In this document: positions 28,772-30,452 of the stretch, in pieces
Numbering within the stretch: the first letter of the stretch is position 1
Layout of the letters: each line of letters starts with the position of its first letter
From: a virus
Lineage: Duplodnaviria; Heunggongvirae; Uroviricota; Caudoviricetes
DNA: 37,440 bases
Direction: 5' to 3' (one strand)
IMG/VR virus record: IMGVR_UViG_2541047705_000012
Program-made: the position numbers and the translations under genes
The notes under the pieces: model-generated
Database searches by the model: none
Told to the model about the DNA's origin: nothing
The model's input: only the letters and a program-made list of their open reading frames with translations

Positions 28772-28972
28772 CTAATCTTTCGGATAGATATCCGGTCTTA
28801 AGTCAGATTTCGTAATTGCACCTGACGTGCATTGCTCAAGTTTTTTAGCCAGCACAAAACTGGCTTTTTTATAGCCATTGAAAACCAGCCGTAAGTAGCC
28901 AGGTGTTGAGCCAACTTTTCCGGCCAACTCGCCCTGCTGTTCTTTGGTTAAAGAGTCCCAATACGCTTTCAT
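28772..28972 (-). CDS. cro: Cro-like repressor (YdaS/Cro family HTH)
   Basis: Divergent from cI; start chosen at the ATG at 28972 (GGAGG upstream), giving 66 aa; C-terminus has an RPDI motif recalled from YdaS-family proteins. Confidence 0.6.
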   Translation of the reverse strand: MKAYWDSLTKEQQGELAGKVGSTPGYLRLVFNGYKKASFVLAKKLEQCTSGAITKSDLRPDIYPKD

Positions 28973-28978
28973 ACAATG

Positions 28979-29056
28979 TGTACCTCCAGTGTACATATTA
29001 CATGATTGAAATGAACCTTCAAGATACTTGTACCTTAACGGTACAAGGGTTTTAAT
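28979..29056. promoter_or_regulatory. Right operator/promoter region: divergent pR (cro) and pRM (cI) with two GTAC-type palindromic operators
   Basis: Palindromes TGTACctccagTGTACA (28979-28995) and CTTGTACCttaacGGTACAAG (29027-29047). pR on the minus strand: -35 TTGAAG (29017-29022), -10 TAATAT (28995-29000). pRM on the plus strand: -35 TTGTAC (29028-29033), -10 TTTAAT (29051-29056), ending 7 nt before the cI ATG, so cI may be leaderless. Confidence 0.45.
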
Positions 29057-29062
29057 TTCGTT

Positions 29063-29737
29063 ATGAAAACAATCCATGACATCCGGCGGTCTAACGCCAG
29101 AAAACTGAGAGATGGTGTTGGCGGGAATTCTTCCTTTGCCACTATGATTGATCGCGAGCCAACCCAGACCAGCAGGTTTATGGGAGATGGTGCTACTAAA
29201 AATATCGGTGACAGCATGGCACGACACATCGAAAAATGTTTCGACCTGCCTGTCGGATGGCTCGATCAAGAACACCAGACAACGAACATCACAAAAAAAC
29301 CTGATGTTTCAATCACTAATAAACAAATCACATTAGTCCCTGTCATATCATGGGTACAGGCCGGAGCATGGAAAGAAGTTGGATATTCTGAGGTTGATTT
29401 GAGCACAGCAGAAACGTATCCCTGCCCTGTACCCTGTGGGGAAATGACTTATATCTTGCGGGTGATAGGTGATTCAATGATTGATGAGTACCGCCCGGGA
29501 GACATGATTTTTGTCGATCCTGAAGTACCTGCCTGCCACGGTGACGACGTTATTGCATTGATGCACGATACAGGTGAAACCACCTTCAAAAGGTTGATAG
29601 AAGATGGGACACAGCGTTATCTCAAAGCGTTAAACCCAAACTGGCCTGAGCCTTACATTAAGATCAACGGTAATTGCTCTATAATTGGTACTGTGATTTT
29701 CTCAGGAAAACCAAGAAGATACAAAATCAAAGCCTAA
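29063..29737 (+). CDS. cI: CI-type repressor (N-terminal HTH, C-terminal S24 LexA-like autopeptidase domain)
   Basis: 224-aa ORF with the S24 serine motif (VIGDSM) and a downstream Lys; divergent from cro-like. Confidence 0.85.
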   Translation: MKTIHDIRRSNARKLRDGVGGNSSFATMIDREPTQTSRFMGDGATKNIGDSMARHIEKCFDLPVGWLDQEHQTTNITKKPDVSITNKQITLVPVISWVQAGAWKEVGYSEVDLSTAETYPCPVPCGEMTYILRVIGDSMIDEYRPGDMIFVDPEVPACHGDDVIALMHDTGETTFKRLIEDGTQRYLKALNPNWPEPYIKINGNCSIIGTVIFSGKPRRYKIKA

Positions 29738-29749
29738 TCAATGTTTATG

Positions 29750-29773
29750 AACCTGCTTCGGCAGGTTTTTTTA
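29750..29773 (+). terminator. Intrinsic terminator after cI
   Basis: Stem AACCTGC/GCAGGTT with loop TTCG followed by TTTTTTT. Confidence 0.7.
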
Positions 29774-29887
29774 TACTTGACAATGTACCTTTGGGATACA
29801 TAATGTACCCAAGAGAAACAACAAACAGGCAGGACGCCCACGAAGTAGCCGCCTGGGGCATATGAAGTCCAGGATGATTCGTTAGCA

Positions 29888-29912
29888 ACAAAAAAGCGCC
29901 CTATAGGACGCT
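29888..29912 (-). terminator. Intrinsic terminator after the minus-strand gene 29940-30452
   Basis: Hairpin GCGTCCTATAGGGCGC followed by TTTTTTGTTGC on the minus strand. Confidence 0.55.
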
Positions 29913-29939
29913 TCGCTCTTTAACAATCTGGATGACTTA

Positions 29940-30452
29940 TTACTCAGATTTGAACTTTGGTTCTGGCAAAAGAGGAGGAGTTGAGTCCTCGAATCGTAGC
30001 CAGTGCTCCCAGATATCGTGGGATTGTAATTCCAGAAGACCAATTTGACGTGATGCAACTGCAGTGCCAGCTATAGTTCCTCCTGCATAATCAACCTGGA
30101 CGGACTTTGACGCTTTCTCAATTAATTCTGTCCAAGCTTCACTTTCCGCGTTAAAAGAAGCAGTTAATTCCTGCAGACGCTGTGGATCATCCTTGTTGTC
30201 TTGTTTCAAACGATTCAGGGCGGCCACCGAATACTTATTCTTAACCCAACTAACCTGAGCTAACTGAACTCTCTGACAAGCGTCCATATCAGTAGTTGTT
30301 TCCTGAGGCATATCAAAGCAGGAAATAAAAAAAGTCTCAACACCATCATTTAGACTACTGCTCGGCTGGTTCAAAGCATCAGAAGCATTGGATGCTATCG
30401 GTATTATCAGTGCTACCGACAGAATCAAACGTTTAACATAAATCGCTCCCAT
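29940..30452 (-). CDS. Secreted/periplasmic protein with N-terminal signal peptide; weak resemblance to the DUF1311/LprI family is a guess
   Basis: 170-aa ORF convergent with cI, with its own terminator; hydrophobic N-terminus (LILSVALIIPIASNA). Confidence 0.45.
   Translation of the reverse strand: MGAIYVKRLILSVALIIPIASNASDALNQPSSSLNDGVETFFISCFDMPQETTTDMDACQRVQLAQVSWVKNKYSVAALNRLKQDNKDDPQRLQELTASFNAESEAWTELIEKASKSVQVDYAGGTIAGTAVASRQIGLLELQSHDIWEHWLRFEDSTPPLLPEPKFKSE

Follow-up and report, generated by a model that had tools for sequence, protein, structure and literature searches.

The class exemplars of leaderless mRNA are the transcripts of lambda cI and Tn1721 tetR. In E. coli K-12, the prophage repressor genes racR and dicA have leaders of 0 and 3 nt, respectively, and transcription of ymfK, the repressor gene of prophage e14, starts on the A of its ATG (class I, leader 0 nt; coordinate 1202156, which is also the gene start) according to dRNA-seq, with ymfK also examined by RLM-RT-PCR (Romero et al. 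2014, PMC4681348). The immunity module of e14 is also that of the Shigella phages SfV and SfIV and of the prophage considered here. The GenBank record of SfV contains a feature, "putative operator region", that spans exactly the interval between the two dyads designated O1 and O2 below, and the operator interpretation is therefore not new.

The DNA that was analysed, referred to here as the window, is a stretch of 37,440 bp that carries a full-length prophage of the SfIV/PhiR29 type; e14, by comparison, is a 15-kb remnant. The region between its repressor and cro genes very probably serves as the OR control region in a lambdoid prophage of the e14/SfV type. An earlier note, made from the letters of the window, had read it as a divergent switch with TGTAC palindromes and a leaderless cI; that reading is correct, ordinary, and already known, the operator region being annotated and the leaderless mRNA published. 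At the DNA level the identity is 93-98% to PhiR29, SfIV, SfV, cdtI, the Stx2c phages, and Ayreon, rising to 99.4% over 1 kb for the ymfT-ymfK stretch of K-12 e14. The cI protein is 100% identical to those of SfIV and PhiR29 and 98.7-99.1% identical to those of cdtI and the Stx2c phages, and its first 85 residues are 98.8% identical to SfV cI. In the window, K-12, and SfV alike, cI and cro are 90 bp apart, with zero indels. On both cI identity and the cI-cro operator/promoter region, the immunity specificity is that of the e14/SfV group. The stretch from O2 through the cI ATG, and with it O2, pRM, and the cI start, is identical in the window and K-12, and pL and the OL sites are the same in the group; two SNPs relative to K-12 fall in or adjoin O1 (a flanking G at 28978 where the consensus is A, and a spacer A at 28988 that is G in K-12). 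Downstream of pL the genes differ, with an LprI-like open reading frame in the window and ymfJ in e14. Among 5426 complete E. coli genomes, 1324 carry the module (match of at least 95% identity, with annotated ymfK/ymfT).

The genes that make up the switch are the following.

28177 to 28740, minus strand: CII-like regulator of the YmfL family, second gene of the pR operon (Pfam Phage_CP76, 1.4e-13)
28772 to 28972, minus strand: cro-like gene, 66 aa, orthologue of e14 ymfT/croE (open reading frame and translation)
29063 to 29737, plus strand: cI repressor gene, 224 aa, orthologue of e14 ymfK/cohE

A Peptidase_S24 domain occupies residues 93-212 of cI (Pfam, 1.5e-26), and alignment with lambda CI places A100-G101, S138, and K176 opposite lambda A111-G112, S149, and K192. 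The N-terminal domain has no Pfam match, yet is homologous to the DNA-binding domains of phage repressors. The protein thus joins an N-terminal helix-turn-helix (HTH) domain to a LexA/S24 autopeptidase whose Ala-Gly site and Ser/Lys dyad are both present, and with its complete S24 domain it is not a RacR-like repressor lacking self-cleavage. The cro-like protein gives weak Pfam matches to YdaS_toxin and HTH_3, both under the gathering thresholds; at 25.1 bits against a cut-off of 30, it does not qualify as a member of the Pfam YdaS family. Its RefSeq name is 'YdaS family HTH protein', and the annotations of K-12, SfV, and SfIV call the gene ymfT or Cro. CI and Cro fall in different HTH subfamilies. 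The CII-like protein matches the NCBIfam equivalog phage_reg_YmfL (2.7e-50). The divergent cI/cro switch of the earlier note is borne out by this arrangement of an S24 cI with lambda-type cleavage residues, a YdaS/HTH_3-like cro, and then a CP76/YmfL-type CII, and by gene order, strands, and dyads over both predicted promoters the repressor and cro genes flank a shared operator/promoter region.

The cro-like ATG lies at 28972-28970 (minus strand) and that of cI at 29063-29065 (plus strand), leaving exactly the 90 bp (28973-29062) originally reported. The description of this gap as very compact holds only in relative terms, the equivalent distance being 100 bp in lambda and 113 bp in H-19B. Within it lie the following elements.

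28979 to 28995, no strand assigned: O1, putative OR1-like operator, an exact dyad (TGTACCTCCAGTGTACA) overlapping the pR start region
28995 to 29022, minus strand: predicted pR, with -35 TTGAAG (29022-29017), a 16-bp spacer, and -10 TAATAT (29000-28995)
29012 to 29028, no strand assigned: candidate degenerate middle operator (TGAACCTTCAAGATACT), centred at -43 from the cI start and overlapping the pR -35
29028 to 29056, plus strand: pRM, with -35 TTGTAC (29028-29033), a 17-bp spacer, and -10 TTTAAT (29051-29056)
29029 to 29045, no strand assigned: O2, putative OR3-like operator, an exact dyad (TGTACCTTAACGGTACA) with extended arms at 29027-29047

The pattern TGTACNNNNNNNGTACA has exactly two exact matches in the 37,440-bp window, both inside the 90-bp gap; in dinucleotide-preserving shuffles (n = 100) the mean was 0.01 matches, and 0 of 100 reached two. 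Run with this pattern, the motif search across the prophage that had been suggested as a check returns only O1 and O2 as exact sites, and their coordinates, read from the sequence, overlap the predicted pR -10/+1 and the pRM -35 as had been described. O1 spans about -7 to +10 relative to pR, its first base being the last T of the pR -10, and its spacer contains the cro Shine-Dalgarno sequence (CCTCC at 28983-28987, GGAGG on the minus strand). The arms of O2 are 8 bp long (CTTGTACC/GGTACAAG), with a midpoint at -26 relative to the cI start. The left arm doubles as the pRM -35; the right arm falls within the pRM spacer, and its conservation is not accounted for by any promoter element there. Whereas O1 and the early-left site OL1 are A-flanked (ATGTAC..GTACAT), O2 is T-flanked (TTGTACC..GGTACA). 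A possible significance of the KpnI site GGTACC was considered and rejected. Both promoters score 8/12 against the consensus and neither was called by a generic promoter scan, and they are assigned from geometry, from conservation, and from the published transcription start. The pR elements are a prediction, and for pRM the -10 ends 7 nt ahead of the A of the cI ATG, as noted earlier, a position with which the mapped K-12 start agrees. An extended -10 for pRM was also rejected, with the TG one position out of register in relatives.

Two sets of loci were compared. In 80 IMG/VR loci all cI proteins are 100% identical, such that they carry SNP-level information only; there are zero indels, the O2 arms are unchanged in 79 (the one variant being GGTACG), and SNPs cluster in the O1 and O2 spacers and at the first base of the right half-site of O1. 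More diverse relatives came from tblastn searches against phages and a profile scan of GTDB genomes, which together gave 32 distinct members from E. coli to Pseudomonas with cI identities down to 43-55%. In these the dyads are found at the same places, with an O1-O2 offset of 50 bp in 30 and 51 bp in the other two, and half-site entropy is 0-0.27 bit. The arms of O2 are invariant while its centre is free, the five central bases having 1.2-1.7 bit compared with 1.18 bit at synonymous codon positions. O1 adjoins the cro ATG in all 32 (consensus aTGTACCTCC..gTACAT), and the abutment of the pR -10 on O1 is kept. On the protein side, the CI helix-turn-helix stretch IDREPTQxSR..KNIG..ARHIE and, in Cro, the motif YLR show no variation from E. 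coli to Pseudomonas, with Y26, L27, and R28 kept in the cro orthologues of Edwardsiella and Pseudomonas phages. Conserved half-sites around a free O2 centre, the same dyad on pL, and co-conserved CI and Cro helices all point to the TGTAC dyads being operators.

The candidate OR sites are these two exact dyads 50 bp apart and one degenerate, conserved site between them. The middle site has three mismatches to the strict dyad in the window and two in many relatives (TGAACCnnCAAGGTACT, or TGTACCGTCAAGGTTCT in Pseudomonas and Salinicola), and always lies 16-17 bp to the left of O2. Its conservation is explained in part by the pR -35. The TGAAC bases are outside that hexamer, yet have an entropy of 0-0.75 bit, and we tentatively regard the site as a candidate operator.

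The same specificity recurs just downstream of cI, where four further features were identified.

29749 to 29775, plus strand: intrinsic terminator after cI from the terminator scan, with an 8-bp stem (GAACCTGC/GCAGGTTT) followed by a T-run
29777 to 29804, plus strand: pL-like early-left promoter from the promoter scan, TTGACA, 16-bp spacer, CATAAT, 11/12 consensus
29784 to 29800, no strand assigned: putative OL1 operator (TGTACCTTTGGGATACA), one mismatch, taking up the pL spacer plus two bases at the start of the -10
29804 to 29820, no strand assigned: OL2, putative weaker operator (TGTACCCAAGAGAAACA), two mismatches, 20 bp from OL1

A terminator is annotated at the same place in SfV and Ayreon. 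The earlier note had placed a recurrence of the half-site in the early-left leader. The recurrence is real, in the form of the one-mismatch site at 29784-29800, but its location is between the pL -35 and -10 rather than in the leader. An exact dyad occupies the OL1 place in many relatives, and the block TTGACA-A-TGTACC-N5-GrTACA-TAAT is present in 26 of the 27 that have a downstream site. The first base of OL2 is the final T of the pL -10, which is the geometry of O1 at pR; a one-mismatch dyad is found at exactly +20 bp in an Edwardsiella phage, an Edwardsiella prophage, and Trabulsiella, and most relatives keep the left half, ATGTACC. The early-left promoter thus carries putative OL operators of the same specificity that are conserved in relatives. 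The tandem operators on a strong pL just after cI and the degenerate middle site both go beyond the first reading of this DNA.

Shared with lambda are divergent cI and cro genes about 100 bp apart, 17-bp dyad operators over both promoters, tandem OL operators on pL, S24 autocleavage residues, and a pRM with a weak -35 and transcription beginning at the AUG. The operators are centred at -26, -43, and -76, compared with -19, -42, and -66 in lambda. In contrast, neither the DNA-binding domain nor the operators resemble those of lambda in sequence, the operators being of the type TGTACC-N5-GGTACA in the window and of the TATCACCGC type in lambda. The OR of the window has only two putatively strong sites and one degenerate one, with the best palindrome overlapping pRM, whereas OR3 of lambda is the site that CI binds most weakly; O1 is situated beyond the pR -10, on its downstream side, and takes in the cro Shine-Dalgarno sequence; Cro is of the YdaS type and CII of the unrelated CP76/YmfL type; and N and cIII genes are not reported for SfV or SfIV. 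The pairs of Rac (racR-ydaS-ydaT) and Qin (dicA-dicC) resemble the window in combining a divergent repressor with a YdaS/Cro-like partner, the window cro having a weak YdaS-family match. To our knowledge, however, RacR and DicA have no S24 autopeptidase domain and so are not RecA-cleavable, and their operators and DNA-binding domains are unrelated to those described here. A distant homologue of the N-terminal DNA-binding domain of cI is Rep of Salmonella phage SPC32H (PDB 5d50; E = 0.0018, residues 1-76). The cI of H-19B/Stx1 phage is 41% identical over residues 6-81, but H-19B lacks TGTAC dyads, its gap measures 113 bp, and its cI is preceded by a GAGGG Shine-Dalgarno sequence. The phage is of a different immunity specificity, and with its entirely different operators it was rejected as a covariation partner.

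A leaderless cI mRNA had been suggested in the earlier note from the distance of the -10 and the want of a convincing ribosome-binding site. Both points stand. The published ymfK start, with its leader of 0 nt, was mapped in K-12 and not in this host (PMC4681348), but the K-12 sequence and the window share every base from O2 through the ATG. The first base of cI, 29063, is taken to be both the start of transcription and the A of the AUG. The best anti-Shine-Dalgarno duplex in positions -20 to -1 reaches -4.3 kcal/mol and is formed by AAGGG at 29045-29049, 13 nt upstream of the ATG. Positions -6 to -1 have an entropy of 1.4-1.9 bit across relatives; these six nucleotides vary freely, and there is thus no conserved Shine-Dalgarno sequence, and none that appears functional, before cI. 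Most relatives have a -10-like hexamer, nTnAAT, ending at -7 or -8, and all 20 ungapped ones carry a T at -7.

It could be argued that cI is expressed mainly from a leadered transcript, arising at an upstream or pRE-like promoter and translated from the weak AAGGG, and that the -10 at 29051-29056 is incidental. The pRM -35 is indeed poor, AAGGG forms the anti-Shine-Dalgarno duplex described above, and the presence of a CII-like gene means that an establishment promoter probably exists somewhere. A transcript of the pRE type could, however, coexist with a leaderless pRM mRNA without contradiction, as in lambda, and the class I start exactly at the ATG was mapped in a K-12 lysogen (PMC4681348). 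Moreover, AAGGG is not conserved, being AAAGG in SfV and ACACAATG or similar in relatives, whereas the -10 keeps its position and the six nucleotides ahead of the ATG show no constraint. We consider it very unlikely that the leadered route is the main one, and retain the leaderless maintenance transcript.

The dyads themselves admit two other readings. That they act at the RNA level, as hairpins or intrinsic terminators, and not as DNA sites for protein binding, is suggested above all by O2, with 8-bp arms followed by GGTTTT, and the terminator scan does list 29027-29047 as terminator-like on the plus strand. But the T-run is just 4 T, and since the mapped start of cI (29063) and the predicted one of pR both lie downstream of O2, it is absent from both switch transcripts. 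From E. coli to Pseudomonas the arms are conserved as sequence and not by compensatory change, and the same sequence occurs again in the unrelated contexts of O1 and OL1. On these grounds a terminator or hairpin at O2 was rejected, and for the dyads as a whole this reading is barely credible. Somewhat less remote, though still improbable, is that the dyads serve as operators for one regulator only, be it Cro, CI, or the CII-like YmfL, while the other uses different sites in a logic unlike that of lambda's shared operators. CI and Cro being of different HTH subfamilies would fit such a division, and the A-flanked O1 and OL1 against the T-flanked O2 hint at two classes of site. Yet there is no other conserved dyad in the 90-bp gap, where the dyads and promoter hexamers cover everything conserved; across the phylogenetic range in which the dyads are conserved, so too are the recognition regions of CI and of Cro; and shared operators are, as a matter of general knowledge, the rule in characterised lambdoid switches. 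Operators shared by both proteins remain our preferred interpretation.

A working scheme for the switch can be proposed in which the LexA-like CI (YmfK/CohE) and the small Cro (YmfT/CroE) would both recognise 17-bp TGTACC-N5-GRTACA dyads. To judge from its position over the pR start and the cro ribosome-binding site, CI at O1 would shut off the rightward lytic operon of cro, ymfL, and replication genes, and CI at OL1 and OL2 on the core of pL would do the same for the early-left operon. O2, located over the pRM -35 and spacer, is where cI would be turned off by Cro or by excess CI. The most tentative step is at -43, where the middle site may let CI stimulate a pRM with a weak -35, in the manner of lambda OR2. 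Transcription from pRM would begin on the A of the cI AUG, as shown for the identical K-12 sequence, to give a leaderless maintenance mRNA. On induction, RecA-stimulated self-cleavage of CI at Ala100-Gly101 by Ser138/Lys176 would derepress pR and pL, a step proposed because the catalytic residues are conserved and e14 is reported to be SOS-inducible. Which protein would bind which site, and in what order, is modelled on lambda. O2 is the best palindrome and overlaps the pRM -35, and pRM is nonetheless active in the K-12 lysogen; putatively, therefore, CI occupies O2 only partially or prefers the A-flanked O1 and OL1.

Full-text literature searches for TGTAC operators, SfV and Stx2c repressors, and ymfK/cohE/croE found no footprint, EMSA, or ChIP of YmfK/CohE or YmfT/CroE on the dyads. 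The Reg-Seq 2025 preprint includes ymfT among its targets, but its text and supplement contain no ymfT result. A paper on Pseudomonas LfsT was set aside as irrelevant, its AAC-N-GTT motif being unrelated to the dyads.

As a discovery the locus carries little weight, this being the e14/SfV/SfIV immunity region, with operators flagged in GenBank and a published leaderless mRNA. Its value lies rather in annotation, through exact coordinates for O1, O2, OL1, OL2, pR, pRM, and pL, and in a comparative set of 32 members that defines the operator consensus TGTACC-N5-GRTACA. A broader reading, which we hold to be possible but doubtful, is that the e14/SfV switch represents a widespread family of the Gammaproteobacteria not described as such, with only two high-affinity operators at an invariant 50-bp offset, the strongest palindrome on a leaderless repressor promoter, a degenerate -43 site for CI-dependent activation, and discrimination between A- and T-flanked sites setting the order of occupancy. 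The family so understood would range over Enterobacterales, Halomonadaceae, Pseudomonas, and Amphritea. If true, the affinity wiring of the e14/SfV switch would be unlike that of lambda. The immunity type is carried by about one-quarter of complete E. coli genomes and includes Stx2c-converting, CDT-converting, and serotype-converting phages. The e14 gene sfiC/ymfM affects E. coli division, and the map presented here bears on the control of an SOS-inducible prophage with this effect on its host and on the induction of toxin phages.

The immunity region of the window is that of the e14/SfV module, as annotated previously, and a leaderless repressor mRNA for this module is already in print. Over 1.7 kb it shares 93-98% identity (Megablast) with PhiR29, PhiR49, SfIV, SfV, cdtI, Ayreon, and Stx2c-converting phages, and 1324 of the 5426 complete RefSeq E. 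coli genomes carry it. Among these is K-12 MG1655, where the counterparts of cI and the cro-like gene are the e14 prophage genes ymfK (LexA-family) and ymfT (YdaS-family). The cI protein contains a Peptidase_S24 domain with its autocleavage residues intact: A100-G101, S138, and K176 align with the cleavage site and catalytic dyad of lambda CI. A YmfL/CII(CP76) family regulator is encoded next after cro. The elements of the switch are as follows; the two reading frames come from direct reading of 28600-29500 and the ORF list.

28972 (start), minus strand: cro-like ORF, 66 aa
29063 (start), plus strand: cI ORF, 224 aa
28979-28995: operator O1, exact dyad, TGTACCTCCAGTGTACA
29012-29028: candidate middle site, degenerate, TGAACCTTCAAGATACT
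29029-29045: operator O2, exact dyad, TGTACCTTAACGGTACA
Minus strand: predicted pR, driving cro; -35 TTGAAG, 16-bp spacer, -10 TAATAT, whose final T is base 1 of O1
29028-29033 and 29051-29056, plus strand: pRM, driving cI; -35 TTGTAC (O2's left arm), 17-bp spacer, -10 TTTAAT, then 6 nt to the ATG
29749-29768: cI terminator, just before pL
Directly 3' of that terminator: early-left promoter pL, TTGACA-16-CATAAT, from the promoter scan (11/12 versus consensus)
29784-29800: OL1, one-mismatch dyad, occupying the pL spacer
29804-29820: OL2, weaker, its first base the last T of the pL -10

The earlier note had described a very compact divergent switch. The 90-bp gap (28973-29062) is real when read from the sequence, but it is hardly shorter than the 100 bp of lambda. 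Its claim of two TGTAC palindromes, overlapping the pR -10/start and the pRM -35, holds exactly: TGTAC-N7-GTACA has two matches in the 37,440-bp window, O1 and O2, both within the gap. Shuffled sequence gave a mean of 0.01 matches, with at least two in 0 of 100 shuffles, and allowing one mismatch across the prophage adds a single site, 29784-29800. The dyads are thus statistically and, from the comparisons below, phylogenetically real. Within the O1 spacer, CCTCC is the opposite strand of the cro Shine-Dalgarno sequence GGAGG, and the O1 flank at 28978 is G in the window versus A in the consensus. In the SfV GenBank record (U82619), a 'putative operator region' is annotated as a regulatory feature, and its mapped limits coincide precisely with the outer edges of O1 (left) and O2 (right).

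Transcription starts of MG1655 have been mapped by differential RNA-seq (Romero et al. 2014, PMC4681348). That of ymfK is class I at 1202156, the gene start, giving a leader length of 0 (Table S3), and ymfK is included in the RLM-RT-PCR figure (Fig. S1D); the same approach in that study gave leaders of 0 nt for racR and 3 nt for dicA. The K-12 gap differs from that of the window by two SNPs, both within or beside O1, and is identical from O2 through the ATG. The leaderless start of cI, previously offered as probable, is therefore experimentally established for exactly this promoter, and the predicted proximity of the pRM -10 to the ATG is likewise correct. pR and pRM each match consensus at 8/12 positions, and a generic promoter scan called neither. 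A leadered transcript as the main source of cI is contradicted by the mapped start and by the fact that the weak AAGGG is not conserved among relatives; positions -6 to -1 are unconstrained, in agreement with the view that cI has no convincing ribosome-binding site. A lambda-like pRE transcript could exist alongside the leaderless pRM mRNA.

A tblastn search using the DNA-binding domain and a GTDB genome profile scan supplied distant relatives; these and phages EPP-1, CF3a, LESphi3, and SfV make up a set of 32 distinct upstream regions. Their hosts belong to Enterobacterales, Salinicola, Pseudomonas, and Amphritea, and the lowest cI identity is 43%. In all 32, O1 lies at the cro start (consensus aTGTACCTCC..gTACAT) and O2 (consensus cTTGTACC-N5-GGTACA) lies exactly 50 bp to its right, or 51 bp in two Pseudomonas phages. 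From the start of O2 to the cI ATG there are 34-35 nt in most relatives, 37-38 nt in four, and 57 nt in Amphritea. Per-column entropy over 20 ungapped relatives was 0-0.27 bit in the operator half-sites, 1.2-1.7 bit in the five central bases of O2, 1.18 bit at cI third codon positions, and 1.4-1.9 bit in the six bases from the pRM -10 to the ATG, with an invariant T at -7. Judged from sequence, this is the apparent signature of protein-binding dyads and of a promoter constrained near the start by distance only, which fits a leaderless start without a Shine-Dalgarno sequence. The idea that O2 is an RNA hairpin or terminator was rejected, since its sequence rather than its pairing is conserved, the dyad recurs elsewhere, and neither switch transcript includes O2. 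Across relatives carrying the dyads, the CI stretch IDREPTQxSR...KNIG..ARHIE does not vary, nor does the Cro motif YLR. H-19B, whose cI DNA-binding domain is 41% identical, lacks the dyads altogether.

Two relatives bear on start-codon annotation. In Amphritea atlantica an in-frame ATG 15 nt 5' of the assumed start, together with a TACAAT box, suggests that translation really begins further 5', in which case near-leaderless geometry may be retained there too. In Edwardsiella phage EPP-1 (1435-1500) the GenBank repressor CDS begins 66 nt 5' of the homologous ATG, inside the operator region and covering O2 and the -10, so this start is probably mis-annotated.

The 80 IMG/VR loci with 100% identical cI comprise 28 upstream variants with no indels. 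Their pRM hexamers are invariant, and the O2 arms are the same in all variants except one (L025, GGTACG). SNPs concentrate in the O1 spacer, base 1 of its right half-site (GTACA/ATACA), and the O2 centre. O1 is a polymorphism hot spot among these prophages (28978-28991; spacer AGT, GGT, GAT, TGT, or AAT), and this variation may modulate repression of pR or translation of cro.

The candidate middle site is always 16-17 bp left of O2 in relatives. Its left half is conserved (0-0.75 bit) even though it falls beyond the -35 hexamer of pR; in Pseudomonas, Salinicola, and Proteus this half is a perfect TGTACC. Its centre is at -43 from the cI start and that of O2 at -26, compared with -42, -19, and -66 for lambda OR2, OR3, and OR1.

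The half-site reported in the early-left leader is present (29784-29800), but its placement with OL2 on pL makes it part of a putative pL operator pair rather than a leader element. OL2 sits on pL as O1 does on pR, and is a 1-mismatch dyad in Edwardsiella and Trabulsiella relatives; the block TTGACA-A-TGTACC-N5-GrTACA-TAAT-GTACC is kept in nearly all relatives. The Pseudomonas phages CF3a and LESphi3 share the O1/middle/O2 arrangement; no OL-type dyads were found in the 400 bp 3' of their cI, and early-left control is therefore arranged differently there. LESphi3 has a BrnT-like toxin/repressor pair 3' of cI.

Elsewhere in the window, a 170-aa ORF (29940-30452, minus strand) has a signal-peptide-like N terminus and a weak Pfam match to LprI (lysozyme inhibitor) below the gathering threshold, with a terminator-like hairpin beside it (29893-29914). 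Its antisense placement, with pL on one side and the early-left genes on the other, makes the ORF a candidate moron or lysogenic-conversion gene; the corresponding place in K-12 e14 is taken by ymfJ and ymfI. Four to five tandem 15-bp repeats (27460-27523; consensus CAGATTTTGACGGGT), alternatively read as 2 x 30 bp, occur within the gene for a 313-aa HTH_36/DnaD-like replication initiator (26891-27832, minus strand). The repeats resemble origin iterons, which in lambda O are likewise embedded in the initiator gene. Directly downstream in the early-right operon is a 164-aa ORF (26400-26894, minus strand) with a PerC transcriptional-activator domain (7.8e-09).

By position and lambda analogy, CI at O1 and OL1/OL2 would repress pR and pL, O2 would serve as the pRM shut-off site for Cro or excess CI, and the -43 site may give positive autoregulation of pRM with its weak -35. 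SOS-triggered CI cleavage would then derepress the prophage; e14 has been described as SOS-inducible and cohE (ymfK) as a CI-like repressor. Although O2 is the best palindrome, the K-12 lysogen has an active pRM. The arms of O1 and OL1 are A-flanked (ATGTAC..GTACAT) and those of O2 T-flanked, a difference that might set the order of operator occupancy. That the dyads serve just one regulator is possible but unsupported. In the literature searched, no footprint or gel-shift study of YmfK/CohE or YmfT/CroE was found. The original observation is confirmed and its interpretation supported, and what remains new is the family-wide architecture of the switch, together with its predicted operator wiring.
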